Source: Mytilus edulis
Lineage: Eukaryota
NCBI RefSeq assembly: GCF_963676685.1
Contig: NC_092349.1
Coordinates: 63,326,924 to 63,390,923 of the forward strand
Length of the DNA: 64,000 nt
Direction of reading: 5' to 3'
A model generated the notes under the pieces. That model was given only the letters and a program-made list of their open reading frames with translations. It searched no databases and was not told the DNA's origin. This document shows, in pieces, positions 6,871 through 60,912 of this stretch; position 1 is the stretch's first letter; the number at the start of each line of letters is the position of its first letter. Position numbers and translations under genes: made by a program.

Positions 6871-6919
6871 ACATACACAAATTATCTGCCCCTTATATGA
6901 ACTCATTTGCATAACTCAC

Positions 6920-8871: not shown

Positions 8872-9036
8872 CTGGAGTGCATTTCCAAACAACCAATGTG
8901 CTTTAGGTCCTGGGAAATGAGACAGTGCCTTGACCATATTTCCATGCCATTTTAAGAACTTAATGAGGTTTATAATGATAACTGTGAGAATCAACACACC
9001 TACACCAATCACTATTGTCATCAACACAGCTGCCAT
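8872..9036 (-). CDS. CYP4-like P450 gene A, exon 1 (signal anchor plus PGPKAHWLFGNALQ)
   Basis: ATG at 9036 (minus). Translation MAAVLMTIVIGVGVLILTVIIINLIKFLKWHGNMVKALSHFPGPKAHWLFGNALQ, followed by a GT donor (gtattt). Parallels exon 1 of genes B and C. Confidence 0.75.
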
Positions 9037-13659: not shown

Positions 13660-16325
13660 TTTAGCTCACCTGGCCCAAAGGGCCAAGTGAGCTTTTCCCA
13701 TCATTTGGCGTCCGTCGTCGTTAACTTTTACAAAAATCTTCTCCTCTGAAACTACTGGGCCAAATTAAACCAAACTTGGCCACAATCATCATTGGGGTAT
13801 CTAGTTTAAAAAATGTGTGGCGTGACCTGGCCAACCAACCAAGATGGCCGCCATGGCTTAAAATAGAACATAGGGGTAAAATGCATTTTTTGGCTTATAA
13901 CTCAAAAACCAAAGCATTTAGAGCAAATCTGACATGGGGTAAAATTGTTTATCAGGTCAAGATCTTTCTGTCCTCAAATTTTCAGATGAATCCGACAACC
14001 CTTTGTTGGGTTGCTGCCCCTGAATTGGTAATTTTAGAGATTTTTTGCTGTTTTTATACGACCGCAAAAATTTTAATTTTTTGGTCGTATATTGCTATCA
14101 CGTTGGCGTCGTCGTCGTCGTCCGAATACTTTTAGTTTTCGCACTCTAACATTAGTAAAAGTGAATAGAAATCAATGAAATTTTAACACAAGGTTTATGA
14201 CCACAAAAGGAAGGTTTGGATTGATTTTGGGAGTTTTGGTCCCAACATTTTAGGAATTAGGGGCCAAAAAGGGCCCAAATAAGCATTTTCTTGGTTTTCG
14301 CACTATAACTTTAGTTTAAGTAAATAGAAATCTATGAAATTTTGACACAAGGTTTATGACCACAAATGGAAGGTTGGGATTGATTTTGGGAGTTTTGGTT
14401 CCAACAGTTTAGGAATTAAGGGCCAAAAAAGGGCCCAAATAAGCATTATTCTTGGTTTTCGCACAATAACTTTAGTATAAGTAAATAGAAATCAATGAAA
14501 TTTTAACACAAGGTTTATGACCACAAAAGGAAGGTTGGGATTGAATTTTGGAGATGAGGTCACAACAGTTTATGAATTAGGGGCCAAAAAGGGGCCCAAA
14601 TAAGCATTATTTTTGGTTTTTGCACCATAACTTTAGTATAAGTAAATAGAAATCTATGAAATTTAAACACAAGGTTTATGACCATAAAAGGAAGGTTGGG
14701 TTTGATTTTGGGAGTTTTGGTCCTAACAGTTTAGGAATAAGGGGCCCAAAGGGTCCAAAATTGAACTTTGTGTGATTTCATCAAAAATTGAATAATTGGG
14801 GTTCTTTGATATGCCGAATCTAACTATGTATGTAGATTCTTAATTTTTGGTCCCGTTTTCAAATTGGTGTACATTAAGGTCCAAAGGGTCCAAAATTAAA
14901 CTTAGTTTGATTTTAACAAAAATTGAATCCTTGGGGTTCTTTGATATGCTGAATTTAAAAATGTACTTAGATTTTTAATTATTGGCCTAGTTTTCAAGTT
15001 GGTCCAAATGGGGGTCCAAAATTAAACTTTGTTTGATTTCATCAAAAATTGAATAAATGGGTTCTTTGATATGCCAAATCTAACTGTGTATGTAGATTCT
15101 TAATTTTTGGTCCAGTTTTCAAATTGGTCTACATTAAGGTCCAAAGGGTCCAAAATTAAACTAAGTTTGATTTTAACAAAAATTAAATTCTTGGGCTTAT
15201 TTGATATGCTTGATATGCATATGTAAATATGTACTTTGATTTTTGATTATGGGCCCAGTTTTCAAGTTGGATCAGGATTCCATATCAAGTATTGTGCAAT
15301 AGCAAGAAATTTTCAATTGCACAGTATTGCACAATAGCAAGAAATATCTAATTGCACAAAATTGCACAATATTGTGCAATAGCAATTAATTTTCAATTGG
15401 AGTTATCTTTCTTTGTATAGAATAGTAGTTGATAATATATGTTGGAAATTTGCCAGACATGACTATGATGTCATTTTCTATTTTTATTTGCCAATAACTT
15501 TATGTAAATAACTTCATTGGAAATTTGCCAATATAAAATGTTGCTGATGAAGCTTTTTTTTCCTTATCTTATCTAAAATGTTTTTAGATAATGTATGTTG
15601 GACATTTGCCAGACATGACTATGATGTCATTTTCTATTTTTATTTGCCAATAACTTTATGTAAATAACTTCATTGGAAATTTGCCAATATAAAATGTTGC
15701 TGATGAAGTTTTTTTTATTGTTTTATACAATAAACAATGTATATTCACTTTTACTACCAACCAATCTTTACCATTCAGTGATAACAAGCACTTTATTTTA
15801 CATTTTAATATTTTATGATGTATTTAAAAGAGTAGTTGTTGTTGCAAACTCCATTAGAAATTTGAATTGATATCAGTTTTGGAAAAAGGGAAACGGGGAT
15901 GTGAAAAAAAAGGGGGGGGGGGGGGTTAAATTTTTCTCATTTCAGATTTCATAAATAAAAAGAAAATTTCTTCAAACATTTTTTTGAGAGGATTAATATT
16001 CAACAGCATAGTGAATTGCTCAAAGGCAAAAAAAAACTTTTAAGTTCATTAGACCACATTCATTCTGTGTCAGAAACCTATGCTGTGTCAACTTTTTAAT
16101 TTTAGATTTAAAAAGTTTGAAGAAGAAATCTTTAATTGATTTGTAAAATCTTGACATTTGTTTTGTGTAAAAAAAACCCATGTAATGTCAAAAATTTGAT
16201 CACAATCCAAATTCAGAGCTGTATCACGCTTGAATGTTTTGTCCATACTTGCCCCAACTGTTCAGGGTTCGACCTCTGCGGTCGTATAAAGCTGCGCCCT
16301 GCGGAGCACCTGGTTGGTTATTATC
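13660..16325 (+). repeat. Composite macro-repeat: terminal hairpin, 490-bp unit, (CGT)n, 165-bp satellite x4, 120-bp satellite x4, 37-bp and 170-bp tandems, poly-G element
   Basis: The hairpin is agctcacctggccc-aaa-gggccaagtgagct at 13663-13693. Sub-arrays lie at 14140-14760, 14755-15235, 15290-15400, 15410-15720 and 15860-16325. Paralogous partial copies are at 18290-19600, 32440-33690 and 47150-48260. Confidence 0.8.
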
Positions 16326-18200
16326 TTGAATATTGTTATAAACAGAGATAAACTGTAAACAGCAATAATGTTCAGCAAAGTTAGATTTACAAATAAGTCA
16401 ACATGACCAAAATGGTCAGTTGACCCCTTTAGGAGTTATTGACCTTTATAGTCAATTTTTAACCATTTTTCGTAAATCTTAGAAATCTTTTACAAAAATC
16501 TTCTCCTCTGAAACTGCTGGGCCAAATTAATCCAAACTTGGCCACAATCATCTTTGGGGTATGTAGTTTAAAAAATGTGTGGCGTGACCCGGCCAACCAA
16601 CCAAGATGGCCGCCATGGCTAAAAATAGAACATAGGTGTAAAATGCAGTTTTTGGCTTATAACTCAAAAACCAAAGCATTTAGAGCAAATCTGACATGGT
16701 TAAAAGTGTTTATCAGGTCAAGATCTATCTGTCCTGAAATTTTCAGATGAATCCGACAACCTGTTGTTGGGTTGCTGCCCCTGAATTGGTATTTTTAAGG
16801 AAATTTTGCTGTTTTTGGTTATTATCTTGAATATTATTATAGATAGAGATAAACTGTAAACAGCAATAATGTTCAGCAAAGTAAGATTTACAAATACGTC
16901 AACACGAATGAAATGGTCAGTTGACCCCTTTAGGAGTTATTGCCCTTTATAGTCAAATTTTAACCATTTTTTTCGTAAATCTTAGTAATCTTTTACAAAA
17001 ATCTTCTACTCTGAAACTACTGGGCCAAATTAAACAAAACTTGGCCACAATCATCATTGGGGTATTTAATTAAAAAATGTGTGGCGTGACCCGGCCAACC
17101 AACCAAGATGGCCACCATGGCTAAAAATAGAACATAGGGGTAAAATGCAGATTTTGGCTTATAACTCAAAAACCAGAGCATTTAGAGCAAATCTGACAGA
17201 GTAAATTTGTTTATCAGGTCAAGATCTTTCTGCCCTCGAATTTTCAGATGAATCCGACAACCCGTTGTTGGGTTGCTGCCCCTGAATTGGTAATTTTAGG
17301 GAATTTTTGCTGTTTTTGGTTATTATCTTGAATATTATTATAGATAGAGATAAACTGTAAACAGCAATAATGTTCAGCAAAGTAAGATTTACAAATAAGT
17401 CAACAGGACCGAAATGGTCAGTTGACCCCTTTAGGAGTTATTGCCCTTTATAGTCAATTTTTAACCATTTTTCGTAAATCTTAGAAATCTTTTACAAAAA
17501 TCTTCTCCTCTGAAACTACTGGGCCTAATTAATCCAAACTTGGCCACAATCATCTTTGGGGTATTTAATTGAAAAAAATGTGTCCGGTGACCCGGCCATC
17601 CAACCAAAATGGCTGCCACGGCTAAAAATAGAACATAGGGGTAAAATGCAGTTTTTGGCTTATAACTCAAAAACCGAAGCATTTAGAGAAAATCTGACAG
17701 GGTTAAATTGTCTATCAGGTCAAGATCTATCTGCCCTGATATTTTCACATGGATCGGACAACCCGTTGTTAGGTTACTGCCCTGAGTTGGTAATTTTAAG
17801 GAAATTTTGCCGTTTTTTGTTATTATCTTGAATATTATTATAGATAGAGATAAACTGTAAACAGCAATAATGTTCAGCAAAACAAGATCTACAAATAAGT
17901 TTCATGACCAAAATAGTCAATTGACCCCTTAAGGAGTTATTGCCCTTTATAGTTAATTTTTAGCATTTTTCATAAATTTATGTAAATTTTTAGAAAAATA
18001 TTTTCCACTGTAATTACTGGGCCAAGTTCATTATAGATAGAGATAATTGTAGCAACAAGAATGTTCAGTAAAGTAAGATCTACAAACACATCACCATCAC
18101 CAAAACACAATTATGTCATGAATTTATCTGTGTCCATTGTTTAATATGCACATAGACCAAGGTGAGCGACACAGGCTCTTGAGAGCCTCTAGTCTCTTAA
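16325..18200 (+). repeat. Tandem array of about 490-bp units (about 3.6 copies) with a terminal ggctcttgagagcc hairpin
   Basis: The unit holds tacaaaaatcttctcctctgaaactactgggccaaatt…ccaagatggccgccatggct…ttgctgcccctgaattgg. The track ORFs at 16538..16750 and 17556..17831 are repeat-encoded. Confidence 0.85.
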
Positions 18201-21352: not shown

Positions 21353-21693
21353 GGGACATACAAATGTAAACTTCATACTGTTATTTTATCAAACACTTGG
21401 GATATTACACCTTATTTCAGGTAAAACTAAGTGGTCAAGCTTATAATCACTGGTCAGTAGGTACATCATAAGATTTTATACTTATCTTGCTTATTATAAG
21501 CATTGATTATAGATTATATCCCTTTGGTTGAAAGGTTATAAAGTAACTGGACTTTAATTTTTATAAAACTTATTTTCCATGTAGTTTTCAGTGAGTTAAA
21601 TATATTCTTGTAAAAGTTTGCATGGTAGTTCTACTCCCATTATTTGCATAAATTCAGACTGAACTTTTCAATTGACCGACATAATAGTAGATA

Positions 21694-21694
<1 letters not shown>

Positions 21695-21747
<53 letters not shown>

Positions 21748-21767
21748 ATATATATATATATATATAG
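21695..21767. repeat. (AT)n microsatellite
   Basis: About 70 bp of alternating AT, interrupted by catg. Other (AT)n runs lie at 20881-20900, 21311-21350 and 52951-52985. Confidence 0.9.
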
Positions 21768-22517
21768 ATCACTGCATGCAGTAAATTTACTTGTAAGATA
21801 ATCTGGTGCGAGTCCATACATTTAAACATTAACATGATTAAAATGGCTTGAAAATATTTTATCCGTGTTAAAATGGTCATCCAATGAAGTTTTTTAAACA
21901 TTGATATTGATGGATAATCAAAAGGCTTTTTCAAAATTAATCTTGCTATGCGCTTTTGTAGTTTATGAATCCGCTCAATGTTGCAATTTGCGGTAAAACC
22001 CCATATGGTGCAACAATAATCAATTATTGATAATATATAACTGTTTTAATAACTGTTATATCTTTGTGTTAACTGCAGTTTATAATTTATAATCTTATGT
22101 AGATTTGTTTTCAAAAGTAGTAAATATAGTGAGTGAGCCTTAAAATTAGCCTTATTGAATGTTACTTAAGCTTTATAGAATTATTTTCCTTCCTAGTACT
22201 TGTTGTTTAAAAGTTTGGTTGGCTAGCTTGCTTTATTAGTATAAATGTTTGCTTGAAATCATTTTAATTAAGATTGACATGTACAATCAAAAGATAGGAG
22301 GGGCTTAACAGCTAGTATATAATATATACTCTGCATCATACTTGACACATTTCTATAAAATTATAAAAGCTGAAGCCCTGTCTTAATAATGCAGAAGGCA
22401 ATCATGATTAAATACTAGAGCAAATTTAACATATACACAAATATAGCACTGAACGTTTCTCACTTTTTTAATTGTAGGAAATATACTTTGAGAAACAGTT
22501 AGCAGCAGATAAGAACT

Positions 22518-24572: not shown

Positions 24573-24771
24573 ATAAAAGATTTCAGTGACCTGATGTTTA
24601 GGATGCATGAGGAATGTATAGCAAAGGGAGACAAACTATATGTGTTTTGGTTGTTTCGATTCCAACCAATTATTATCCTGGCACATCCAGACACCATGAA
24701 AGTAGTAATGAGATCTAATGCTCCAAAGACAATGATTGGTCCAGGGTATCCTTTTCTTGTTCCATGGCTAG
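24573..24771 (+). CDS. CYP4-like gene B, exon 2 (IKDFSDLMFRMHEECIAKGDKLYVFWLFRFQPIIILAHPDTMKVVMRSNAPKTMIGPGYPFLVPWLG)
   Basis: Acceptor ttattttcag, donor g|gtgagt. Phase 0 to 1. Confidence 0.85.
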
Positions 24772-24856
24772 GTGAGTTGTAATGAGATATAATGCTCCAA
24801 AGACAATGATAGGTCCAGGATATCCTTTTCTTGTTCCATGGCTAGGTAAGTTGTGA
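24709..24856 (+). repeat. 74-bp tandem duplication covering the 3' end of gene B exon 2 and its splice donor
   Basis: atgagatctaatgctccaaagacaatgattggtccagggtatccttttcttgttccatggctaggtgagttgta is repeated directly with 6 mismatches. Confidence 0.85.
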
Positions 24857-25839: not shown

Positions 25840-26305
25840 GACACTTCCGGTGAATAGTGGATAAAACATAATCGACTCAAATTTGAAACTGGGAGATATT
25901 CCAAATTAGAAGTTCATCAAAGAATTTGTGTTAAATGCAATTTAAATAAAATGGAAGATGAACTTCATTTTCTTATAGAATGTCCTGTATACTCTAAGGA
26001 TAGAGACCTGTTATTTGATCTGATATTTAAAGAATGTAAAAAATTTTACTCCTTAGATATGGTCAATAAATTTATTTGGTTATTAAACTGTTAGTCTATA
26101 AATATTTTGAAACAACTTGGCTTATCAAAACACCTGCCTGGAGTAAACATTTATTACCGTATATAACACTGGGATACAGTTTGTAAGCAATATTTATGAT
26201 GTCTAACTTTAGCATACTGTTAAATATAATTATAACTTTATATTATCATATATGTATATGCTCTATGCCCCTTGAGGGTACCTCTTATGGAAATAAAAGA
26301 TATTC
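25840..26305 (+). mobile_element. 5'-truncated LINE 3' end (ORF2 C-terminal Cys-rich tail), ending in (ATTCT)n
   Basis: Translation …ICVKCNLNKMEDELHFLIECPVYSKDRDLLFDLIF…LLNC* is the same CxxC…HFLxECxxY module as the C-terminus of the intact LINE ORF2. The tail is tattctattctattctatt at about 26283-26305. Lies in intron 2 of gene B. Confidence 0.6.
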
Positions 26306-27040
26306 TATTCTATTCTATTTATAATCGACGATCCAGGGTCAATAGACAAAGCCAATGCAATATTACGCGACTCGGTTTTGCATACTTATTTCCTCATTTT
26401 GGTATTCATCTATTTCTGGAGTTATGTAATATTTATCGTCATGAACATTGATGTTTATACTTAAATATATGTTTTTACTCGCGTATTATTGGTTTCATTT
26501 ACATAAATTAAACATCTTTATACGTTTTGAAATTAATCCTATATTTTGCTGAACTGATTTGAACTTTGTCTTGAATATTATTTCACTTGTCCACGGGCAA
26601 CCAAGACAAAAATGATCACTTGTCCGCGTGATAAAATGTACGAGTTGGGCAAGTCGGGCATAGCATTTCCACACCCCTGATAAGATCAAAAGAAAATTTC
26701 GTAAAATAGCGATGAATAAAAGTATTACCTTATAATGTTGCAATGAATTATAGTGATTTAGTCAGGTATAGATACGAACCCTGAAATACAATGCTCAACT
26801 AAGTACAAAATAAAAGTTTTATATGAATGCAAAATCACTAAATAATATATATTTATCAAAATAAAAATGTTTTAACAATCCATAAAAATAGGTTTTTAGG
26901 AAATTAAAAGAAATTGCACAGTGTAAAAGCTATGTAACATAATTTATGAACCCTAGTTTTTCTCAAATTCCAAAAGAATTTTTTCAATGTGATACTCTTA
27001 ACAGACGTTTTATTAATGAGCTATTTTGATTGTTTTTAAG

Positions 27041-31899: not shown

Positions 31900-32410
31900 G
31901 GGTATAGATACCTTGTTTTCTATGATAAATCCTAATTTTTTTGTGATAGTTGCCAAATTGAAGATGAAAAACACTTTCTTTTTAATTGTTGTTTTTACTC
32001 TGATATCAGACATGAATTATATGCCAAAGCCTGTCTTTTAAACGTTGATTTTGAGTATTTATGCGATATTGAAAAACTTCGTTATCTTATGTGTAATGAG
32101 AATATGGTTCCTCTTTTAGCTAGTTCCCTTTATCATATGTTTTATCGACGAAAACATGTTATCTAGAAATTATATATGTTTTTTTATTTTTTTTTTTTTA
32201 TTTACGAAATACTTTTTAAATGTAACAAAGCTGTCCTTTTATGTATGTATTAGATGTTTGTTTTTATGATAGTGTCTCATAAGTCGTTTTCGGCTGGCAT
32301 CCTTTTACTTAAATGTTAGGTTCTTATGACTTTATGTATATATATATATATTGATATTGTAATGGATGGTGACACTTTAATAAAATAAATCTTATCTTAT
32401 CTTATCTATT
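31900..32410 (+). mobile_element. 5'-truncated LINE 3' end ending in (TTATC)n microsatellite
   Basis: Translation CDSCQIEDEKHFLFNCCFYSDIRHELY… stop, then a T-rich 3' UTR and cttatcttatcttatctatt at 32388-32410. Lies in intron 6 of gene B. Confidence 0.6.
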
Positions 32411-34251: not shown

Positions 34252-35334
34252 GTACATGTAGTTGATTTTGTTTATAAAATATTTACATGTAGTTTACATA
34301 ATGTGTGTTTACTAAGATCACCCAGAGTACAGAAAAGGACACATGTATACATGTGTAAGACTGTGCTTGATATTCCAACATTCAAATATGAAATAAGAGA
34401 TGAATTTTAATTTGGTTTGCTTTGTAGGGTTCTTATATCTCAATTATCAAACAGTTACAGACTTTACATGGAGATTTTTTCAATCTTAAATAGTTTAACA
34501 GATGTTTTGATATTTATTAACATAAGGTTGATTTCTATTCCAAGCAGCTCATATTTGCAGGATCTGCTTACCCTTCTGGAGCACCTCAGATCACCCCTAG
34601 TTTTTTGGTGGGGTTCCTGTTGTTTATTCTTTAGTTTTTCTATGTAGTGTCATGTGTGCTGTTGTTTGTTTGTCTTTTTCATTTTTAGCCATGGCGTTGT
34701 CAGTTTGTTTTATATTTATGAGTTTGACTGTCCCTTTGGTATCTTTTGTCTATCTTTCATATATTGTATACCCAAAAATTTGTTTATTACAAGTGTTTTT
34801 AGGTAATATTTATTCAGTGGACCATAAAAGATTATTACACAGAAATAGGATTGATTGCTCACAATAACTACTTATTTTCTTTTGCAAAACAAATTATATC
34901 TCAATTAAAAGTATGCACTACTTGATCATTCAAAATATCACATAGATACAAGTTATCAACGTAGCAGCAATTTTATACAAATAAAAATATATCTAACAAT
35001 GGTCTTTACACTGTCATATAAAAAAGAAGATGCAGTATGATTGCCAATGAGACAACTCTTCACAAGAGACCAAGTGACACAGAAATTTACAACTATAGGT
35101 CACTGTCGGGCCTTTAACATTGTGCAATGCCCATACCACATAGCATTCCTGCCAACTTTTCAAAATGCTCATGGGGGTTTTATGTGCAAGATGGCCCCTA
35201 TAGTCCGACAAAACCTTCATTACTGATTAGGGGCCTTCAAATATATTTTAATGTTGTTTTTTTGGCTTCTTTATACTTTTACAAGCCTATAGCCATTGTA
35301 AAATTAATTGTTTTGTTTTAATTGTGGACATACT

Positions 35335-35525
35335 GTGGATTCATTATTATTCGTTAGATACCAATTTTAGTGGATTTCATGGGTTCAGATAAACCACGAA
35401 ATTAAATGTTTTCTAGAGGGTTGTATGCAGACTTAAGCAAAACCACGAAATTAAATATCTACGAATATACAAGTTTTCCTTTATCCACGAAAATTGGAAC
35501 CTACGAAAATAAATGAACCACAGTA
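35335..35525 (+). mobile_element. MITE (CTGTGGATTCATT TIR family) copy
   Basis: ctgtggattcattattattcgttagataccaatt … aaataaatgaaccacag. The termini are reverse complements of each other. Confidence 0.75.
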
Positions 35526-36558
35526 ATTGCTCTTTTAAAATTTCTATTTGGGAGCCTCCATGGGGGAAATCCCCCGCAAATAGTGACAGTTGACAGGTAT
35601 TACATAGTCAGCTATAATATTTATTTTTAGGCAGTTAAGCTACCTTATGCGAGCACCCTGGTTTTATGTGCTACCCAATAAATGCTGAAATACGTGCCAT
35701 TGTTATCATCTAGCTGGCTACTATATTATTTATAACTTATTGGACAGTTTTTTCATACTTTTCATTCTGGATTACAAAAAATATGACCAGAAAAACCTTA
35801 AATGATCGTCGATTTTCCCAAAAGTTTTGAAGTTGCACATAGGAAGTAGAGCACATTAGGAATCCTTATGTAGTTCATTATCCCCTGAGCTTTTGGCTAA
35901 GATGTCAAACAACAAATGTATGCAATATTTAATCGCCGAAAATCTCTAAAGACAAGTAGTTAAGATTTCTCAAATTGCAAAAGTCGTAGGAATATTGTTT
36001 GTCGTCAATACGTAGTCAACTACGTATATATACGTCAGTATAAGTTCAACTGATCACGCTGTTGGCGGCAATTTTGAATTAGAAGACGAAATTTTTGTAT
36101 CTTTTCAATTTGGACGCAGGGGTTCAAATTAGCCGTGGTCCGAGGTCTGCGACCTTCCACTTTTGCAGTCGGACTTTCTACTTGGTTACTAGCTACGCCC
36201 GACATGCCCGACGGAAATTGAAAGAAAAACAATAACTTTGCAAACATTTTTACCAGTTTCCTAATAAACAATCTCAAACTTATTTTCATCATTACTATTC
36301 ATGACAGCGATGTTCAATTTGTTCAACCGCTAGCTTTATACAGAAAATCGCCGATAAATAATGTGTAAATCCGAGCAATATCGTATTTCACTATCTGTCA
36401 AAACAACATTGAAAATAAAATGGCTGCCGCGAGAAGACATCCTCAATCCTCAATCTTAAGGCCTGTTGGCACGAATTGTCCCAATGTACGGTTTTACTCT
36501 CTGGTGCGTTTTCCTCGATGTATTTTCTTCTCTGTGCTTTAAATTTGGTATGCGCTGG

Positions 36559-38259
36559 TTAAGATTGGGATTGAGGAACAGCAGTATTAAATCTGCCCGT
36601 TCTGTCAATGAAATGTGCCACTGTTTGTAATTTGGCTTTTGTCTCTTCTGTGTTTTCGCCGTCCAGTCTTGTCAGCATAGTAGCTAAATTCAAGTTTCTG
36701 ACCCCGACCTCTTTGGATATTTGGTGTAGCATATCTTCTCGTTCTTTTTCATAGTAGGGACACTCCAGAAGGAAATGTTGAGGCGTTTCAGGTGCTCCAC
36801 AGTTGCATGACTCTATGGCGTTGGTTTGGCCTACTCGGTTCTTGTAGTAATTCAGTTCTGTATAGCCAGTTCTTAGTTGGGCGAATATACTGAAATGTCT
36901 CTTAGTTGGGAAATCATACATAATTGAGTGTTTTGTAGTTGGTATTTTTTCATAAAGGTCCCTGCCTCTCTCAGATATTTCCCATCTTCTCTGCCATTTA
37001 TTTCCTGTACTTTTGTATGCTGCTTGTTTGACGTCCTGTAGTGTTATGACGTTATTTTCCGGTGGTAATTCTTTTGCTTCCTCTGCCGCTGTTTTTGCAA
37101 GGATGTCAGCCTCATCATTACCAACTATGTTGGCATGTCCTGGTGTCCATGCTACAATTACATTGAGTCCTTTTTGCCTAAGATGTTCAATATTTTCTTT
37201 TATTTCTCTTATTATGGAGATGTAGCTGTTTGGGGCCCAGTTCAGTGTAAGTAATCCCACGGCGCTTTGACTGTCAGAGAAAATTTTGATTCTTTGTATT
37301 GCATTGTAAATGTTTTCTGTAATGCAGTATTCTAGGACCATGAGAATTGCTATGAGTTCCGCTAGAAGGATGGATCCTCTTTGTGCCACAGGTCTATGTA
37401 ATCTGGTAGCAGGTTTAATGTGTTCAGCATAGATAATTGCACCTGCTCCACAGGGTCCTGGGTTCCCTAGGCATGATCCATCTGTAAACGATATTGCTTG
37501 TTCTTGTGTGCAGTCTCCCATGAGTTGGTTAATGGTTTCCTGGCAAAGTTCCTGTTGCTCATTTGTCCTTGATTTTGAGTTGCCTAGTTGACTCCAATAT
37601 AAAGGTTTTGATTGAGTCATTTGAGTTTCTCCCAGTCTGTAGGTAAACTCTGGTTCTATAAGATTGATGTTTATCTTTGTCTGTTTTTCCATTTCTGCTG
37701 CTTGGCTTAGTGCTTTGCCCATTGGTGTTGGATACTTGTCATATGCGTCATGTTCTTCATACCTCACAAGTTGCTGTTTGATTGGTTCCTGTGCAGATTT
37801 GGATTTAATCTTTGCAATCTCTTTAATGGCTATTTGTTCTAGTCTCAGGTCTATTGGCATAACTCCTGATTCCACTTCTAGTGCTTCTCTGCCAGATGTT
37901 GTAGGCATATCCATGCATAGGATAAGTGCTTTTCTCTGTACTCTGTCAAGTTTTTGCAGGTCTTTTGGTTCTGCTATTTGCCAGGCCGGACTACAATATT
38001 CCATGACTGATCTGACTAGACTGTAGTATAATTGTAATAACTTTTCTGTCTTTAATTTGCTGATCTGTCGCACTTCTCTCAGAATAGTTAAGTTACGGTT
38101 TGCTCTCTTTTCGATTGCATCAATGTGTTTACTGAAGGTCATTTTCTCGTCCATAATGATTCCAAGAAGCTTTGGTGTTGAGTTGTATTTCAGTTCTTTA
38201 CCTTGAATCAAAATGCGTTTGTCCTCTTCATCGATGTTTTTTTTTTTGAAAAGATGCAT
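36559..38259 (-). CDS. LINE ORF2, C-terminal part (RT thumb, RNase H, Cys-rich tail), out of frame with the N-terminal part
   Basis: 566-aa ORF. The RNase H domain includes FTDGSCLGNPGPCGAGAIIYAEH, with the DE..D residues present. The C-terminal tail CNCGAPETPQHFLLECPYYEKER is typical of LINE ORF2 ends. The ORF overlaps the 751-aa ORF around the poly-A tract at 38226-38236. Confidence 0.8.
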   Translation of the reverse strand: MHLFKKKNIDEEDKRILIQGKELKYNSTPKLLGIIMDEKMTFSKHIDAIEKRANRNLTILREVRQISKLKTEKLLQLYYSLVRSVMEYCSPAWQIAEPKDLQKLDRVQRKALILCMDMPTTSGREALEVESGVMPIDLRLEQIAIKEIAKIKSKSAQEPIKQQLVRYEEHDAYDKYPTPMGKALSQAAEMEKQTKININLIEPEFTYRLGETQMTQSKPLYWSQLGNSKSRTNEQQELCQETINQLMGDCTQEQAISFTDGSCLGNPGPCGAGAIIYAEHIKPATRLHRPVAQRGSILLAELIAILMVLEYCITENIYNAIQRIKIFSDSQSAVGLLTLNWAPNSYISIIREIKENIEHLRQKGLNVIVAWTPGHANIVGNDEADILAKTAAEEAKELPPENNVITLQDVKQAAYKSTGNKWQRRWEISERGRDLYEKIPTTKHSIMYDFPTKRHFSIFAQLRTGYTELNYYKNRVGQTNAIESCNCGAPETPQHFLLECPYYEKEREDMLHQISKEVGVRNLNLATMLTRLDGENTEETKAKLQTVAHFIDRTGRFNTAVPQSQS

Positions 38260-40463
38260 ATTTCAGTTTTGTCTAGGTTGATGTTTACTCTCCACTTTTG
38301 AGTCCATTTCACTGCCTTTGTGATGTCATCCTTCATTCTATCTTTGAGTTCCAGTATCTGGTCTGGTTGAGCCGTTTGCCAGAGTGTTCCGTCATCAGCA
38401 AATTTGGTGTAGTCTCCTAGAATGTCTCCCAGTAGGTCGTTGATAAAGATGTTGAATAATGTGGGAGCCAGAACTGATCCTTGTGGTAGCCCTATCTTTG
38501 TTTCAAATTCTTCACCTACATAGTTTTCGAAGATGCATCTTGCCATTCTGTTATTTAGGAAATCTTTAATCCAGGCCCATGTTTTTCCTCTTATACCCAA
38601 ATGGTGTAGTTTTACTAGTAGTCCCTCTCGCCAGATTGAATCGTATGCCTTTTCAAGATCAATAAGACATGCAAGGGTGATTTCTCCTTTATTGAATTTT
38701 TCTATTGTGTTCTGAATAAACCTGATCAGGCAGTTTGATGTTGAGTGTTTTTTCCTGAATCCTTCTTGTTTTTCTTCTATAAGCTTCATTCCTTCTATGA
38801 ACGCTGCCAGCCTGTTAAGAACAATTCTTTCAGTAATTTTGCACATGACACTGGTTAGACTTATTGGTCGGTATGATGATGGTGAGTAGTAATTGGTTTT
38901 TCCTTGTTTCCTCAGGAATTTTATGTTTGCTGTCTTCCATTCCTGTGGTAGCCGGCCATGTTTTAGTGTGAGGTTCACCATAGTTCGTATTGCTTCTATG
39001 AGGTTTTCTCCGGCAAACTTAAATAGTTCTGGGAAGTGGCCGTCAGCTCCAGGCGATTTACCTATTTCTAGTAGGTATATTGCTGCCTCAACTTCATCCG
39101 TGGTAACCTCATAGTCCAATTTATGTTCTCTTTTTGTCAATCTTTTCTCTAATTCACATATTCTTTTGTATTCCTCTTGAGTCTGTTTGTAGAACTCTTC
39201 GTCAAATTCATCAGTCTTTAGATGCTTACCCTCAAAAAATGTTTTTTGCAAAATTTTACATTTTTCTTGATTTGAAAAGGCTGGTGGGTCGTCTTGGTCT
39301 ATTAGTGGTAGGATGGTATTGCAATCTTTCTTTTTGGTCAATTTCTTATAAGTTGTCCATACCTCTTTTGAGTTTCTTGATGTATTGATCTGGTCTACTA
39401 GGTGTTCACTCCAATCATTCATAGCTTTTTCTTTCTCATTTTCAAACTTTTCTTCTGCTGTAACAAGGGCTTCTTTATTTTGTGGGATGTTTCTCTTCCT
39501 ATATTGCCTTTGTTTATAGTTTAAGTTTTTCTTTGCCTGATTAACATCATAATTCCACCATGGAGGTTTAGTTGATTTTTTTTCTTTCATCTCTTTTTGG
39601 CAGATAACTTCCTGCATCGTTTTATCAATAGCCGCTTTAAGTGATTGGTATACTTCATCTACATTATCATTGCTTGGATTGTTCAGTAGCCATTCTTCCA
39701 TGTTCTTTTCTGCCTGTTCTTTCCATTTATTCCAGTCTACTTTGTTAATTTGCCATACTTTCCTTTTTGTTAAGTTGTTTTGTTCCTTTTTGCATACATC
39801 AAGTTCTGTTAGTATACATATATGGTCAGATCGTATGTTTTCATGGACTAGTGTTGAACAGTTGTGCACTTTACTAATAGTGCTGGGTGTTATAATGACT
39901 AAGTCAATGACACTTTTGGTATTTCGTCTTGTAGGCTGGCCATCATTAACGCACAGCATGTCTGTTTTGGTCAAGAAGTTTTCAATTATTTCTCCTGCCT
40001 TGTTTGTCTTGTCATTGTTCCATTCTAAGCTTTTAGCATTAAGGTCTCCCATTATAATCAGTTCATGCTTGTTGTTTTGTTGTACCTTTTGAACTTTGGT
40101 AGTTAGTTCTTCAAGTTGTTTTGTTTCTTCTGGTGGAATGTAGGGTACTAGCAGATTGAATATGATGTTGTTATCTGTGTGTATGGTAGCTGCTACACTT
40201 TCATAGTTTGTGTCTTCAAAGTCTGTGCATTTAGTGACTGTGAAATTGGTTTTGTGAGTGTTGATGCAAATAGCCACGCCCCCGCCTTTTCTTCCTTTAC
40301 GTGGTTTATCAAACACTTGCCAGTCTAAAAAAGTTAGTTTTTTATTCTCTTCTTGGTGTGTTTCATTTAAACAAACAATATCTACATCATAACTATTTAC
40401 AATATGTACAAGTTGCTGATAGGCCGTACTAATGGCCTGTGCATTCAGGAAGAGGAGTTTCAT
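38208..40463 (-). CDS. LINE ORF2, N-terminal part (APE-type endonuclease plus reverse transcriptase)
   Basis: 751-aa ORF. The N-terminus LNAQAISTAYQQL…VDIVCLNETH is an exo/endo/phosphatase fold. RT motifs follow, including LIDLEKAYDSI and FADDGTLW. The ORF terminates inside an A11 run. Confidence 0.8.
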   Translation of the reverse strand: MKLLFLNAQAISTAYQQLVHIVNSYDVDIVCLNETHQEENKKLTFLDWQVFDKPRKGRKGGGVAICINTHKTNFTVTKCTDFEDTNYESVAATIHTDNNIIFNLLVPYIPPEETKQLEELTTKVQKVQQNNKHELIIMGDLNAKSLEWNNDKTNKAGEIIENFLTKTDMLCVNDGQPTRRNTKSVIDLVIITPSTISKVHNCSTLVHENIRSDHICILTELDVCKKEQNNLTKRKVWQINKVDWNKWKEQAEKNMEEWLLNNPSNDNVDEVYQSLKAAIDKTMQEVICQKEMKEKKSTKPPWWNYDVNQAKKNLNYKQRQYRKRNIPQNKEALVTAEEKFENEKEKAMNDWSEHLVDQINTSRNSKEVWTTYKKLTKKKDCNTILPLIDQDDPPAFSNQEKCKILQKTFFEGKHLKTDEFDEEFYKQTQEEYKRICELEKRLTKREHKLDYEVTTDEVEAAIYLLEIGKSPGADGHFPELFKFAGENLIEAIRTMVNLTLKHGRLPQEWKTANIKFLRKQGKTNYYSPSSYRPISLTSVMCKITERIVLNRLAAFIEGMKLIEEKQEGFRKKHSTSNCLIRFIQNTIEKFNKGEITLACLIDLEKAYDSIWREGLLVKLHHLGIRGKTWAWIKDFLNNRMARCIFENYVGEEFETKIGLPQGSVLAPTLFNIFINDLLGDILGDYTKFADDGTLWQTAQPDQILELKDRMKDDITKAVKWTQKWRVNINLDKTEICIFSKKKTSMKRTNAF

Positions 40464-41514
40464 TCTGTGTATTCAGTATGCTGTAAAGTCTCCTCTTGTT
40501 GATTATTTCAAGATATTTTTCGCACTTTGTTGATGTTGCTTGGTGTATGTTCCCACAGTTTACGCAACACGGGGTGTTTTTGCAGTCTTTAATCTTGCAG
40601 TTTTCTTTCCCACAGTTTGAACAGGTAGCTATGTTTAGACAGCGCTTGCCAATGTGTCCAAATTTGTTGCAATTGTAGCACCTAACAACTTTAACAGGTT
40701 GTTCTGCTTGAAATTTAGAGTATGTTGTTGTGCCGGGGTGGCAGTATCCTTTCGAGGTGATAGCTTTTTTAACTTCCCCGTGGTCAGTAAAGGTTACTTT
40801 TACTACTGGCATAAGTTTCCCAGTGTCTCTGTACTTTTTTCTCTTCACTTCTTTTATTTTATATAGGTGTGACAGATCTAATGATAGATTTTCTTCTGAT
40901 AGATGGACAGGAATATTATGTAGGTAACAAGAGTTTGTTCCGTGGTTTATAGATCTTGGTTTGTGTGCCACAGACTTTTCGCCAAATACGGATGTATTTA
41001 TTGGCCAGGATTTAATGATTATGTCCCTTGTTTTTTGGTCTTTCAGGTGGATAGCTATTCCCCCTTTTGGTAGGCTATACGCCTCTTCTATTTGATCTTC
41101 AAGTGCTTTGATTTTTGTTAACTCTTTTCTAATTGTTGTACTGTCTATAGCTGTGTTTGGCTGTTCTATGTTGTCTATAATTATAATTTTTTCTGGGTCT
41201 TTCTTCTCTCTTAGTGCCCTTGGTAGTTTTCCTTCTGTATTCTGCTTATGGTTATTACTTTGCAGATAGCCTTGTCCTATTGTTTTTGTGATCTCTAGTA
41301 ATTTATCAATTTTCTGGTCTGTTTTGGTATCACTAGTTGTTTGATGATACTCAGCTGTTAGTAGTATATATGGTTGCTTTATGATGCAGAGTGCACATGG
41401 GAATTTAATACCTGTACTTATAATTTTTCCTGCATCCTCTGTTGTGTATCCTGCACATACACTGTGCCACCACTTATTGCACAGATCGCATTCAAGCCAG
41501 GTGATTTCTTTCAC
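40429..41514 (-). CDS. LINE ORF1 gag-like protein with N-terminal PHD-type zinc finger and three CCHC zinc knuckles
   Basis: 361-aa ORF. The PHD-type finger is WLECDLCNKWWHSVCAGY…CALC. The zinc knuckles are CYNCNKFGHIGKRC, CSNCGKENCKIKDC and CCVNCGNIHQATSTKC. The ORF overlaps the ORF2 start by about 35 nt. Confidence 0.8.
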   Translation of the reverse strand: MKEITWLECDLCNKWWHSVCAGYTTEDAGKIISTGIKFPCALCIIKQPYILLTAEYHQTTSDTKTDQKIDKLLEITKTIGQGYLQSNNHKQNTEGKLPRALREKKDPEKIIIIDNIEQPNTAIDSTTIRKELTKIKALEDQIEEAYSLPKGGIAIHLKDQKTRDIIIKSWPINTSVFGEKSVAHKPRSINHGTNSCYLHNIPVHLSEENLSLDLSHLYKIKEVKRKKYRDTGKLMPVVKVTFTDHGEVKKAITSKGYCHPGTTTYSKFQAEQPVKVVRCYNCNKFGHIGKRCLNIATCSNCGKENCKIKDCKNTPCCVNCGNIHQATSTKCEKYLEIINKRRLYSILNTQNETPLPECTGH

Positions 41515-41974
41515 AGTACTTATAGTTTTTGGTGGTTCGTCTCTACAACATCCGACATTACAATATCGGATCCGATTCCGGAAGCGGATAAGGGTAATCT
41601 CGGGTTTTGGCTTTCAACTAAAAAAATCCAGACAGGTGACAAAATACATTTATGAATGGTAAATAAATATAAACACTAGAATTGAAAACCAAAAGAAAGA
41701 AAAAGCAGAAAATATTTTGTACACCAATTTTAATGTGACAGCTAGGAACAGTTTATCTAACAATATATATGTTCCTGGTAACAGTATAAATTTTCTTTAT
41801 CAGTGATAAATGTTGGTAATGCATGTTAAATGCTTTTCAAGTTAAACATATTTCTGCAATTGCAAGGGGTATTTTTTTTCTTCTCAATTTTGATAGGCTG
41901 GAAGTTTCTTATACAAAAAAAAGATGTGGTATGATTGCCAATGAGACAACTATCCACAAGAGACCAAAATGACC

Positions 41975-42830
41975 AAAACTTGGTAACGGTCAAGATCCCC
42001 CACCCTAAACCATATATATTCATGTATGGGACAATATAACAAATCATATGAAATATAGGTGGAGGTCGTGGGAGAATTTATAACGGTCGAGATCCACAAT
42101 CTTAAACAATATATATTTATGTATGGGACAATATTACAAATCAAATGAATTATAAGGGGTCCCTATGGTCACTGTACACCCTCCTGTTTGAGAACTCGGA
42201 AAAATTCCAGATCATCACCCCTTGACCATATATACTCATGTATAAGACTATATATATAATAAATCAAATGAAATATAGGGGAAGTCCCTGTGGTCACCCT
42301 ACCCCTCATGTTTAAAAACTTTGAAACAGATGGGATCCCCAACTCTAAATTAAATGAAATATAGGGGGAGTCCCTGCAGTCACCCTACCCCTCCTGATTG
42401 AGAAATTGGAAACAGTCGAGCTCCCACCTTTAAATTAAACCATATATATTCATGTATGAGAACTAATCAAATGAAATATAGGGAGAGTCCTTAGGGTCAC
42501 CCTACCCACTCCTGTTTGATAACTTAGAAACAGATGAGATCCCCACCCCTCAACCATATATATTTACGTATTGGACAATATAACAAATCAAATGAAATAT
42601 AGGGGAAGTCACTGGGGCCCCCACCCCTCCTGTTTGAAAACTTGATAACGGTCGAGATCCCCACCCATAAACCATATATATTCATGTATGGGACAATATA
42701 AAAAATCAAATGAAAAATAGGGGTAGTCCCTAGGATCACCCCACACCCTCTTGTGTGTGTTTTGAGAACTTGTAAAAGATTGAGATACCAACGCCTAAAC
42801 CATATTCATTCCTGTTTGTCATTTCAAAAA
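41975..42830 (+). repeat. About 125-bp satellite, about 6.5 copies, abutting the LINE 5' end
   Basis: Units contain ccatatatattcatgtatgggacaatataacaaatcaaatgaaatataggggaagtccct…cctgtttga. Confidence 0.85.
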
Positions 42831-43470
42831 AGATTGAATGACATACAAGGTCAATCTCATAGGCGACACATATGCATATCACTTTGCTAGACCCTAACAC
42901 CTGTCATTTTATTCCAAACTTAGACATTATGGACTTGGGGTGAAGGTGGGAGTCATTTACATTTACTATGGACAGGTCAGTCAGACCTCACCGTTGATCC
43001 CTGTAGTAGTAAACATTTGTCTGATTTGTGTCTCATAACTTTTGTACTGTACAACACAAACTTAGTTTCTTTCCAGGGAAGCAAGTCTATTCATACTTTT
43101 ACAAGCTCGTACTAAAGTCAACTTGAACTACTATCATGTACTAACAGTCAACTAATAAGAACAATTACGATCAACTAGAAGAACTGCAATCATTGCAAAT
43201 TTGTACCACTGCTGACTCATGAAAGAGGCATGACCATTCATGGTCATGTGCGTTGCTATTGAAAACCTTGATAAAATATGAATTATTTGCCTTAATGATT
43301 AATTCATTAAATGAACATAAATGTACAATTATATATGAATGTTTAATGTCTGTTCTTTTAAATCTTTAAAAAAAAGTTGAAGCAACATTGCCACAGTTTT
43401 CATAATTATGTTTGCCTTGGTTTTTGGTTAACTGCCTACAGTGCTTACAGCGCTTTGATTGATATTCCAG

Positions 43471-47149: not shown

Positions 47150-48260
47150 TTTAGCTCACATGGCCCGAAGGGCCAAGTGAGCTTATGCCATCACTTGGCA
47201 TCCGTCGTCGTCCGTCGTCGTCTGTCGTCGTCCGTCGTTGTCTGTCGTCGTCTGTCGTCGTAAACTATTTCAAGAATCTTCTCCTCTGAAACTACTAGGC
47301 CAAATACTTCCAAACTTTAACTGAATGTTCCTTAGGGTATCTAGTTTATAAATGTATACCCGTTGTTTGGTTGCTTCCCCTGAATTGGAAATTTTAAGGA
47401 AATTTTGCTGTTTTTGGTTATTATCATGAATATTATTATAGGTAGAGATAAACTGTAAACAGCAAAAATGTTCAGCAAAGTAAGACCTAAAAATAAGTCA
47501 ACATGACTGAAATGGTCAGTTGACCCCTTTAGGAGTTATTGCCCTTTATAGTCAATTTTTAACCATTTTTCATAAATCTTAGTTATCTTTTACAAAAATC
47601 TTCTCCTCTGAAACTACTGGGCCAAATTGAACTAAACTTGGCCACAACCATCATTGGGGTATCTAGTTTGAAAATTTTGTCCGGTGACCTGGCCAACCAA
47701 CCAAAATGGCTGCTGTTACTTAAAATAGAACATAGGGGTCAAATGCAGTTTTTGGCTTATATCTCAAAAACTAAAGCATTTAAAGCAAATCTGACGGAGT
47801 AAAAATGTTCATTAGGTCAAGATCTATCAGCCCTGAAATTTTCAGATGAATCAAACAACCCATTGTTGGGTTGCTGCCACTTAATTGGTAATTTTAAGGA
47901 AATTTTGCAGATTTTGGTCATTATCTTGAATATTATTATAGATAAAGATAAACTGTAAACAGCAAAAATGATCAGCAAAGTAAGATCTACAAATAAGTTA
48001 ATATGACCAAAATTGTCAATTGACCCCTTAAGGGGTTATTGTCCTTTAATGACAATTTTTCACAATTTGTTCATCATATTTGCTAACTTTAAAAAATCTT
48101 CTTCTCTAAAACTACTCAACCAAATTCAACCAAACTTCATTTGAATGATCAGTAGGGTGTATAAAATAAAGTTTGTGTTTTATTTTCTATTTCGTCAAAA
48201 AACATGGCTGAAGGCATTGTTTACCAGGTGAGCGATTCAGGCTCTTGAGAGCCTCTTGTT
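47150..48260 (+). repeat. Partial copy of the composite macro-repeat: hairpin, (CGT)n, 490-bp units, ggctcttgagagcc tail
   Basis: agctcacatggcccgaagggccaagtgagct at 47157-47187, (cgt/cgtctgt)n at 47200-47270, and units at 47590-47910. Lies between genes B and C. Confidence 0.8.
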
Positions 48261-60275: not shown

Positions 60276-60912
60276 GTAATTTTTTAACAAAAAAGTTCAA
60301 CTTATATTGAATTTAGTATTGCCGGTAACCACCAATTGTTTGCCTGTTGTATATATGTAAATTAATATTCCCATATGCTGCCATTCTGTGTGATCTACCT
60401 AAAGTTTTAAGTTGAAGAAAACTTAACTTTTGATAGATTTGTGATTGTCATTTCTATTCTTCTCAACGATTATTTCTGATTGAATATGATTACTAGTAGC
60501 TAAGATATGTCTTCCATTTCATGTTGAGTCATGTGCAAGGAAAAGAGTTTGCCAGTATATCTTATGTAATAAAATTAAAAAAACTAAAGTAAAGAGAAAC
60601 TGTTCACTATGCCATTAACAAATATGATTTAAAGGAGAAGCGGGGTATACATTAATGATACAGAAACCCAACCAAAAAAATAACCGAAAGACATCTGAAG
60701 GGCAACAAAGTCTTCAACAACAAACAGATGTCTTAACAATATCATAGTCAACCTCAAAATCGTCCAGAGTCGATAAAACTTGTGATTTATTTTTAAGCAT
60801 TTAATTATTTCTTTGTGTTTGATATCTAGATCCTTATAGAAGTAGAAGTTATAAAACTCAGATCTTAACTATATTTTGCATACCGCTTTATATGGAAGAG
60901 TTTATGTTCTAG

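Follow-up and report, generated by a model that had tools for sequence, protein, structure and literature searches.

A 5′-truncated and frameshifted LINE copy of an RNase H-bearing Mytilus family, antisense in a cytochrome P450 intron

The window, a stretch of 64,000 nucleotides of the Mytilus edulis genome, carries on its plus strand a CYP4B1-like gene (gene B), for which a 12-exon map was obtained via protein P0098 (Pfam p450 precomputed). With M. edulis XP_071179999 (P0119) the exons share 87.5–100% identity (mean 97.6%), and this close identity to annotated CYP4B1-like proteins identifies the host gene as a member of cytochrome P450 family 4. Its intron 7 contains a minus-strand LINE, as the initial annotation had reported (Table 1). 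The equivalent introns, delimited by exact GT/AG junctions, measure 637 bp in gene C (60276–60912) and 748 bp in gene A (3545–2798) versus 9,219 bp in gene B, and the proposal that the insertion postdates the paralog duplication is thereby upheld. The idea that the LINE inflates the intron to 9.2 kb is only partly right: the intron sizes were correct, but the LINE contributes 5.1 kb and the other 4.1 kb consist of other repeats. In the closest counterpart genes, intron 7 does not contain the LINE and spans ~0.94 kb in M. trossulus and ~1.35 kb in another M. galloprovincialis assembly. No exact empty site was recovered from these two counterparts, whose introns do not align with that of the window. 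With a DNA identity of 74–93%, the counterpart loci might be something other than strict orthologs or alleles.

Table 1. Features of the LINE copy and its host intron (window coordinates).
Feature	Position	Strand	Details
Intron 7 of CYP4B1-like gene B, LINE host	34252–43470	plus	9,219 bp; tblastn exon map with P0098 and P0119, GT/AG junctions
LINE copy	36440–41553	minus	5,114 bp, 5′-truncated; collinear by blastn with L001 and L002, flanks unrelated on both sides
LINE 3′ UTR	36440–36558	minus	119 bp past the ORF2 stop; ends ...GGCCTTAAGATTGAGGATTGAGGA, a (GATTGAG)2 tail
ORF1 remnant	40432–41553	minus	374 of 419 family codons; ATG and codons 1–45 missing; stop 40429–40431
PHD finger (C4HC3)	41386–41562	minus	first Cys codon (41562–41560) is flanking DNA; LINE starts at 41553
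Two tandem RRM-like domains, ORF1	40693–41187	minus	AlphaFold model m4a3c44f8872b and Foldseek
Three zinc knuckles, ORF1	40522–40680	minus	regex coordinates; Pfam zf-CCHC E = 0.02
ORF2 (APE-RT-RNase H-CCHC)	36559–40463	minus	interrupted by frameshift; ATG overlaps ORF1 end by 35 nt
APE-type endonuclease	39813–40424	minus	Pfam Exo_endo_phos 2e-13, Exo_endo_phos_2 5e-19; residues 14–217 of 751-aa ORF
Reverse transcriptase, FADD active site	37980–38903	minus	Pfam RVT_1 1.4e-35; residues 521–737 of 751-aa ORF; crosses frameshift
RNase H	37084–37503	minus	Pfam RNase_H 1.2e-17 (566-aa ORF); profile positions 2–140 of 141
ORF2 C-terminal CCHC motif, C-x-C-x7-H-x4-C	36760–36807	minus	CNCGAPETPQHFLLEC
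A11 homopolymer (T11 on plus strand)	38237–38247	minus	+2 versus A9 in both sister copies; shifts ORF2 to −1 frame

Three copies of the element were compared: that of the window, one at a different M. edulis locus (L001) and one in M. galloprovincialis (L002). All share the same 3′ boundary, immediately beyond which their sequences diverge. Their 5′ ends differ: that of the window copy is at 41553, the alignment of L002 begins only at window position 41313, 240 nt inside it, and L001 exceeds the window copy by at least 135 nt, reaching the ORF1 ATG and passing it; this upstream sequence of L001 (the 135 nt to the ATG and beyond) is absent from the whole window. A fixed 3′ end combined with variable 5′ truncation, among dispersed copies with unrelated flanks, is the pattern that defines a LINE. 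The span of 36050–41650 assigned at first therefore has to be narrowed, by ~390 bp at the 3′ end and ~100 bp at the 5′ end. Nor does the accompanying description of a near-intact element with a single frameshift survive, because a copy that is 5′-truncated has more than this one lesion: the 5′ UTR, the ORF1 ATG, 45 codons and the first PHD cysteine are missing, so the copy has been non-autonomous since insertion, whatever the state of its homopolymer. Autonomy calls for a complete 5′ UTR with a promoter and for intact ORF1 and ORF2; here the 5′ parts are absent and ORF2 is frameshifted.

The ORF listing gives three minus-strand frames (40429–41514, 38208–40463 and 36559–38259). The 361-aa ORF1 described initially does exist as an open reading frame, but its start is a GTG admitted under table 11 (the bacterial code). 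No ATG was found near the 5′ end of this frame, and the ORF1 product of L001 (P0072) begins MPPIRRSNRLTS..., 45 codons upstream of the first match in the window. At full length the family ORF1p (419 aa) combines a PHD finger with a pair of RRMs and three zinc knuckles. The finger follows the pattern C-x2-C-x19-C-x2-C-x4-H-x2-C-x19-C-x2-C with invariant Trp residues, and all eight zinc ligands are invariant among eight aligned ORF1 homologs. When the PDB was searched with a profile of this finger, the matches were almost exclusively PHD fingers, with BPTF best (1.1e-5) and DIDO1, PHF2/8 and KDM5B also among them. The Pfam PHD profile stays under its cutoff (E = 0.003 in the window copy, E ≤ 0.01 in 7 of 12 homologs), with scores of 17.9–20.5 bits against a gathering threshold of 24. 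By its Cys4-His-Cys3 signature, canonical spacing and profile similarity, the family does carry a PHD finger, and the type named at first was right, except that in the window copy the finger is truncated and its first Cys gone.

Downstream of the finger, the AlphaFold model of ORF1 predicts two beta-alpha-beta-beta-alpha-beta units (pLDDT ~80–93), and its best Foldseek matches are the tandem RRMs of HuR, hnRNP A1/A2B1 and Sxl (E ~1e-8); Pfam RRM_1 gives E = 0.026 in the window ORF1 and 2e-4 in P0073. The three CCHC knuckles reported earlier are present, but just one is canonical, the second reading C-x2-C-x4-C-x4-C and the third C-x2-C-x3-H-x6-C. An N-terminal PHD finger and RRMs directly upstream of CCHC knuckles constitute a type IC ORF1p in the classification of Khazina & Weichenrieder and of Metcalfe & Casane, with its PHD truncated in the window copy.

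The family ORF2p (~1,300 aa) contains an AP endonuclease, a reverse transcriptase (RT), an RNase H and a CCHC motif, and the first three, which had been proposed from the translation, were all found by Pfam profile search across the 751-aa and 566-aa ORFs. Joined across the A tract, the two pieces align end to end with LINE ORF2 proteins of 1,230–1,305 aa from Mytilus and others, the RT alignment carrying on in the −1 frame (...LGIIMDEKMTF...EYCSPAWQ). In the ORF2 alignment, endonuclease residues E34, D140, N142, D213 and H214 are conserved, as are FADD of the RT and FTDGS, E1036 and D1120 of the RNase H; the third acidic residue of the latter (Asp of SDSQS) is present in the window copy and absent from the alignment's list of conserved columns. 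C1220, C1222, H1230 and C1235 of the C-terminal CCHC motif are nearly invariant. The Cys-rich C-terminus noted earlier thus proves to be a CCHC motif, and ORF2 has no other stop or frameshift, but the element as a whole is not free of further lesions, given its 5′ end. An N-terminal AP endonuclease followed by an RT makes this an APE-type non-LTR retrotransposon.

An RNase H downstream of the RT, matched over its full length, is characteristic of the I superfamily. RT BLAST bit scores were 113–164 against Nimb and Ingi references (the four strongest 149–164) and 33–121 against L2, RTE-X, CR1 and Tx1. A neighbor-joining tree places the RT next to the Nimb plus Ingi group yet outside both clades, and its identity is 33–40% to four Nimb-labelled RTs and 35–37% to two Ingi-labelled ones (bivalve and gastropod), with no clear preference. 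The tree covers 11 references over ~250 aa, a small set, so there is modest support for the grouping. The family most likely belongs to the RNase H-bearing I superfamily and is of Nimb or Ingi type. Nimb and Ingi are the only I superfamily clades in molluscs, with seven Nimb and two Ingi clusters in M. edulis, according to PMC10294476.

Two other truncated LINE tails lie in the window, and they do carry different microsatellites, as had been noted: the tail near 26305 ends in (ATTCT)3 and the tail near 32390 in (TCTTA)3, both pentanucleotide repeats. Their supposed relationship to the LINE copy was not borne out, since what they share with it is a generic C-terminal CCHC (27% identity, E = 3e-4). 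Both match the RNase-H-less LINE protein P0061 far better (39–41%, E ~1e-10) and, judged by these matches, appear to resemble an RNase-H-less lineage.

By blastn, the window copy is 99.6% identical to L001 (10136–15249) over 5,117 columns and 98.3% identical to L002 (10212–15072, also at a different locus). The ORF2 of L001 is annotated as a single 1,301-aa product with all four Pfam domains. The youth initially ascribed to the family is thus confirmed: with 99.6% identity between copies and an intact ORF2 in one M. edulis copy, the family is very young and probably retains active members. In a three-way comparison, 13 substitutions in 4,917 sites (0.26%) were private to the window copy; 8 of the 13 are synonymous, which suggests that some of these differences accumulated while the lineage was active and under selection.

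The copy would have been placed antisense in intron 7 by target-primed reverse transcription, the mechanism expected of this type of family, with reverse transcription or 5′ joining halting 135 nt into ORF1. The insert thus lacked from the outset the promoter-bearing 5′ UTR, the start codon of ORF1 and part of the PHD finger. No convincing target-site duplication (TSD) was found at its junctions, both of which are abutted by just (A)TGTC (4–5 bp), and L001 shows a weak 7-bp candidate and nothing else. TSDs of 5′-truncated inserts are commonly short or absent. Independently of the truncation, the A9 run appears as A11 in the window copy, either through a real slippage mutation or through a homopolymer assembly error.

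The frame change between the 751-aa and 566-aa ORFs is real, but the A11 tract lies 11 nt from the 38226–38236 given at first. Alignment columns 3307–3308 are gaps in L001 and L002; with A9 in both sister copies, A11 is either an insertion (+2) private to the window copy or an error of assembly, and in this RT-coding region it splits ORF2 in two. Long homopolymers are classic sites of indel errors, and if the true run were A9, ORF2 would be uninterrupted and, if transcribed, able to provide ORF2p in trans. We consider such an error possible though somewhat unlikely: divergence is otherwise just 0.26% and ORF2 has no further frameshift or stop, but +2 errors are rarer than ±1 errors, and slippage of a polymerase in vivo would account for the tract just as well. 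This question concerns the second lesion alone and is compatible with a truncated copy. That the two halves of ORF2 are linked by programmed −1 ribosomal frameshifting has almost nothing to recommend it beyond the direction of the shift and the fact that A_AAA_AAA is formally a slippery heptamer; it is contradicted by the single continuous ORF2 of the A9-bearing sister copies, the site falls midway through the RT domain, and the nine full-length ORF2 homologs of the alignment all do without a shift at this position.

With a probability of about 0.9, then, the locus holds a recent, dead, 5′-truncated copy of a Mytilus RNase H-bearing LINE family that additionally carries a frameshift. Were it instead a near-full-length element with the homopolymer frameshift as its only defect, it would be retrotransposition-competent if that frameshift were a sequencing error. 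The otherwise uninterrupted ORF2 with its intact catalytic motifs and an ORF1 frame open over 41613–40432 fit such an element, but L001, from the same species, has 135 nt more up to the ATG and beyond, none of it in the window, and upstream of 41553 the open frame has no ATG and runs through DNA that is not homologous although the rest is 99.6% identical. Together with the lost first PHD cysteine, this makes a near-full-length element very improbable. Domestication as a host-exapted retroelement gene is hardly conceivable. Long ORFs and a synonymous excess among private changes might be cited for it, but such an excess is the expected product of an active master lineage before insertion, several near-identical copies turn up at unrelated sites across different assemblies, none of the closest counterpart genes examined contains the LINE, and the copy is truncated, frameshifted and antisense within an intron. 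The truncated LINE copy is without host function and simply lengthens an intron enlarged earlier or later by other repeats.

For annotation, the boundaries of the element are corrected and a supposedly near-intact copy becomes a dead-on-arrival insert, which also provides a dated case of a LINE having been active recently, and of an intron having grown, in a Mytilus CYP4 gene cluster. Extensive structural and presence/absence variation is a known feature of Mytilus. This is routine TE biology that leaves the current understanding of LINEs unchanged, and it is mildly interesting in that the PHD-bearing ORF1 type of CR1/L2 is coupled here to an RNase H-bearing ORF2.

The ORF1 finger shares its C4HC3 spacing with the H3K4me3-reading PHD fingers of BPTF, DIDO1, PHF2/PHF8, KDM5B and ALFIN-like proteins (E 1e-5 to 1e-4). 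Within W-x-x-C-D-x-C-x-x-W-W-H, two Trp residues conserved without exception in the eight aligned ORF1 fingers align with a Tyr and a Trp of BPTF, which we take to be aromatic-cage residues Y23 and W32. It differs from these readers in having an aliphatic residue before the first Cys, a position that in BPTF is presumably also part of the aromatic cage, and in not reaching the Pfam gathering score; in the window copy the first Cys is itself lost. As a speculation to which we give low odds, the type IC ORF1, described so far only in RNase-H-less CR1/L2, could be a stable ancient feature of a bivalve RNase H-bearing I-superfamily lineage, itself the source or another recipient of the module. Part of the same speculation is that the PHD, because its two Trp occupy presumed cage positions, might hold the RNP at active chromatin and skew the choice of integration sites.

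Nimb LINEs (Nimbus/BgI of Biomphalaria glabrata, Nimb-2_DR of zebrafish) have, like the window family, two ORFs, with RRM and zinc knuckles in ORF1 and APE, RT, RNase H and a C-terminal CCHC in ORF2, and in Martelossi et al. 2023 (PMC10294476) the M. edulis clusters M.edulis_1/114/151/252/254/310/322 are assigned to Nimb. RT identity to Nimb is, however, no higher than to Ingi references, no mention of a PHD finger for a Nimb ORF1 turned up in a literature search, and the TSDs of 10–15 bp of zebrafish Nimb-2_DR (PMC4245944) have no equivalent in the window copy. The mollusc Ingi-like LINEs (M.edulis_126/135 in PMC10294476) also belong to the I superfamily and bear an RNase H. The type IC ORF1 that Metcalfe & Casane (2014, PMC4120745) describe for subgroup 3 of CR1 and subgroup 2 of L2 has a PHD, two RRMs and three CCHC motifs, identical in order and number to those of the window family; the Sxl tandem-RRM structure 1b7f_A, the top RRM match for CR1 subgroup 3 (PMC4120745), is also among the fold matches of the window ORF1. 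Horizontal exchange is suspected for the type IC ORF1 of the CR1 and L2 lineages. Both subgroups belong to the Jockey superfamily and lack an RNase H, whereas the ORF2 of the window family has one, and a type IC ORF1 is likewise paired with an RNase H-bearing ORF2 in L006 and L007, divergent relatives whose ORF1s are only ~27% identical.

The insert antisense in intron 7 of CYP4B1-like gene B, at 36440-41553 on the minus strand, is a dead-on-arrival, 5′-truncated copy of a young family of I-superfamily LINEs; the initial annotation, which had described a near-intact element with a single frameshift, spotted the LINE correctly but interpreted it too strongly. A local BLASTP search with ORF1 recovered the Mytilus proteins P0071 and P0072 (99% and 91% identical), whose contigs carry further copies of the family. 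One such copy in M. edulis (L001, GCA_905397895.1) aligns with window positions 41553-36440 at 99.6% identity over 5,117 columns, and one in M. galloprovincialis (L002, GCA_900618805.1) aligns with 41313-36433 at 98.3% identity. The flanks of the three copies are unrelated, so they are independent insertions. All three share the terminus ...GGCCTTAAGATTGAGGATTGAGGA and diverge directly after it, which places the 3′ end of the element at ~36440, 119 bp beyond the ORF2 stop codon, the element ending in a (GATTGAG)2 tail; from there out to 36050, the 3′ limit originally drawn, lie 390 bp of flanking intron.

On the 5′ side, homology to L001 begins abruptly at 41553, and L001 runs a further 135 nt upstream to an ATG (MPPIRRSNRLTS...) and beyond. 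This upstream sequence is absent from the whole 64-kb window, and the window copy is therefore 5′-truncated: the 5′ UTR is missing, as are the start codon and 45 codons of ORF1 and, in the PHD finger, the first cysteine, and the copy can no longer be called near-intact. The frame that remains open upstream of 41553 belongs to the flanking DNA and has no ATG. An internally deleted ORF1 was considered instead of truncation, as the in-frame IRFRNRIRY upstream of 41553 superficially resembles the family N-terminus IRRSNRLTS, but this reading was rejected because there is no DNA similarity upstream of 41553, compared with 99.6% over the remaining element. Self-blastn of the window revealed no additional copies of the LINE; it turned up only an unrelated repeat of ~60 bp at ~41907-41973, recurring at 35014 and 50074.

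Features of the LINE insertion, its host genes and neighboring repeats (window coordinates)
Feature	Position	Strand	Evidence or remark
CYP4B1-like gene A	957-9036	-	tblastn
CYP4B1-like gene B	22518-46456	+	tblastn
CYP4B1-like gene C	52767 to beyond 62950	+	tblastn
Tandem array, period 169 bp	23014-23629		gene B intron 1
Truncated LINE tail, (ATTCT)3 end	25858-26322	+	sense in gene B intron 2
Truncated LINE tail, (TCTTA)3 end	31936-32410	+	sense in gene B intron 6
Tandem array, period 163 bp	32647-33403		gene B intron 6
ORF2 downstream piece, 566 aa	36559-38259	-	Pfam RNase_H 1.2e-17, full-length match
ORF2 upstream piece, 751 aa	38208-40463	-	Pfam Exo_endo_phos_2 5e-19 (AP-type endonuclease), RVT_1 1.4e-35
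ORF1 remnant ORF	40429-41514	-	ORF call
Tandem array, period 118 bp	41990-42800		gene B intron 7

The three long minus-strand ORFs originally noted at ~36.5-41.6 kb are all present, and profile searches bore out the reverse transcriptase (RT), RNase H and APE domains ascribed to ORF2. The joined ORF2 aligns end to end with nine homologs of 1,207-1,305 aa (38-50% identity, the nearest of them a Mytilus edulis protein), with the endonuclease, FADD, RNase H and C-terminal CCHC motifs all conserved. Its two pieces overlap at an A11 run, located by exact count at 38237-38247 (the position first assigned was off by about 11 nt), and the downstream piece lies in the -1 frame. Programmed -1 frameshifting was entertained as a means of joining the pieces and is excluded, since both L001 and L002 carry A9; A11 is thus either a +2 change private to the window copy or a homopolymer assembly error. 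In L001, ORF2 is annotated as one product of 1,301 aa with all four Pfam domains. The frameshift is not the only lesion of the window copy, given its 5′ truncation, and L001, whose ORF2 is intact, carries a 1-bp deletion in ORF1 at its position 10910 (window 40778), which accounts for the abnormal C-terminal end of P0072, the annotated ORF1 protein of L001. None of the three copies examined (window, L001, L002) is fully intact.

At the 4,917 sites where the window copy, L001 and L002 can all be compared, private substitutions number 13 (0.26%) in the window copy, 3 in L001 and 74 in L002. Eight of the 13 in the window copy are synonymous, which is above the expectation under neutral decay (binomial P about 0.006-0.02); part of its divergence probably pre-dates insertion and stems from an active, selected source lineage. 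Overall, the suggestion of a young, possibly still-active family holds at the level of the family, which is young and plausibly still active today, but not for the window copy itself, which is inactive.

The P450 genes were mapped by tblastn with Mytilus CYP4B1-like proteins. Gene A is inverted relative to B and C within the paralog cluster. In genes A and C, most exons match M. galloprovincialis proteins at 96-100% identity, and by exon identities the closest protein to gene B is M. edulis XP_071179999, a pattern indicative of the M. edulis species complex. Reading the splice junctions confirmed the intron 7 sizes given earlier (9.2 kb, 637 bp and about 750 bp), with 9,219 bp in gene B (34252-43470), 637 bp in gene C and 748 bp in gene A. 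The LINE contributes 5,114 bp, and the other 4.1 kb, still several-fold the size of the paralog introns, holds other repeats including the 118-bp tandem array, such that intron 7 is enlarged by other repeats as well as by the LINE. The tandem arrays in introns 1, 6 and 7 add to gene B intron growth independently of the LINE. The 3′ end of gene B exon 2 and its splice donor are also tandemly duplicated at 24700-24854 (74 bp x 2.1, 92% identical), with a second in-frame tblastn HSP at 24776-24850; this duplication could be a source of an alternative donor site.

Gene B spans 23.9 kb, compared with 10.7 kb for its closest counterpart, L004, from a second assembly of M. galloprovincialis, and the DNA identity of only 78-93% suggests that the two are highly divergent haplotypes or paralogs. 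Intron 7 measures about 0.94 kb in the closest M. trossulus counterpart (L003) and about 1.35 kb in L004, both without the LINE. With DNA identity to the window of just 74-93%, these counterparts are perhaps not orthologs or alleles in the strict sense. Neither L003 nor L004 yielded an exact empty site: their intron 7 sequence cannot be aligned with that of the window, which prevents reconstruction of the pre-insertion site. An exact k-mer search for target-site duplications at the junctions of the window copy, L001 and L002 found nothing beyond 4-8 bp, the sole repeat abutting both window junctions being (A)TGTC, of 4-5 bp.

The two truncated LINE tails in introns 2 and 6, originally taken to represent related families, have only a generic CCHC motif in common with the LINE (27% identity, E = 3e-4) and are much more similar to P0061, an RNase-H-less LINE protein (39-41%, E about 1e-10), so neither is closely related to the family of this LINE. 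Pfam searches gave no matches for the ORFs of these tails or for an 87-aa ORF at 36038-36298. Just upstream of gene B, a minus-strand LINE fragment at 21671-22045, adjoining an (AT)n microsatellite (21691-21766), resembles LINE ORF2 C-terminal of the RT domain; several RNase-H-less proteins match it at about 30% identity. An unclassified interspersed repeat family lies between and after the P450 genes (13724-14132, 16462-16747, 17464-17828 and 47563-47799) and carries a conserved ORF-like stretch (LLQKSSPLKLLGQI.PNLATII.GVSSLKNVWRDLANQPRWPPWLKIEHRGKM...).

Martelossi et al. (PMC10294476) report no molluscan clades of the I superfamily other than Nimb and Ingi, and for M. edulis they list 7 clusters of Nimb and 2 of Ingi. 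Against a small set of labelled RT segments from the alignment of that study and from one gastropod study, the window RT has its best matches among those of Nimb and Ingi, at 33-40% identity and, for the top four, 149-164 bits, with CR1, L2 and RTE-X at 103-121 bits and Tx1 at 33 bits. A neighbor-joining tree of this small set puts it beside the Nimb+Ingi group, favoring neither clade. These scores and this position file the LINE in the I superfamily, as a Nimb or Ingi type.

The 361-aa ORF1 initially proposed starts at GTG, a start codon under the bacterial code only; in the family, full-length ORF1 has 419 aa (homologs 410-433 aa). Pfam matches of the window ORF1 are sub-threshold (PHD 0.003, zf-CCHC 0.02, RRM_1 0.026). 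The pattern C-x2-C-x19-C-x2-C-x4-H-x2-C-x19-C-x2-C and three Trp are invariant in 8 homologs, and nearly all PDB entries retrieved by a profile of this segment are PHD fingers (BPTF at 1.1e-5, followed by Pps, CFP1, ALFIN-like, KDM5B, DIDO1 and PHF2/8). An AlphaFold model of ORF1 from a 19-sequence alignment (mean pLDDT 74) contains two beta-alpha-beta-beta-alpha-beta units, which Foldseek matches to tandem RRMs (HuR, hnRNP A1/A2B1, Sxl; E about 1e-8). Three zinc knuckles follow the RRMs, only the first being a canonical CCHC.

Two divergent relatives also combine a PHD-type ORF1 with an RNase H ORF2: L006, with an ORF1 27% identical to that of the window (Pfam PHD 5e-4) and an ORF2 RNase_H match of 1.4e-16, and L007. 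L006 is the whole 6,131-bp contig JBFNJM010001234.1 (GCA_040793965.1), deposited as a 'Candidatus Thiodiazotropha sp.' MAG; this contig and the proteins P0004 and P0091, likewise labelled Thiodiazotropha, represent complete PHD-ORF1/RNase-H-ORF2 LINEs and are almost certainly bivalve-host contamination of the symbiont MAG. Chimeric Mytilus gene models (P0001, P0071, P0077, P0081) join parts of LINE ORF1 and ORF2 to one another or to host genes, and one LINE-containing chimera carries the name GABRA.

A search of published papers found no report of a PHD finger in ORF1s of the I superfamily. The sole modest curiosity of this LINE is the coupling of a PHD-bearing ORF1 to an RNase H ORF2. Its ORF1 is of the same "type IC" known from a single subgroup each of CR1 and L2 (Metcalfe & Casane, PMC4120745); whereas those subgroups are without RNase H, in the window family the type IC ORF1 occurs together with an ORF2 that encodes RNase H.
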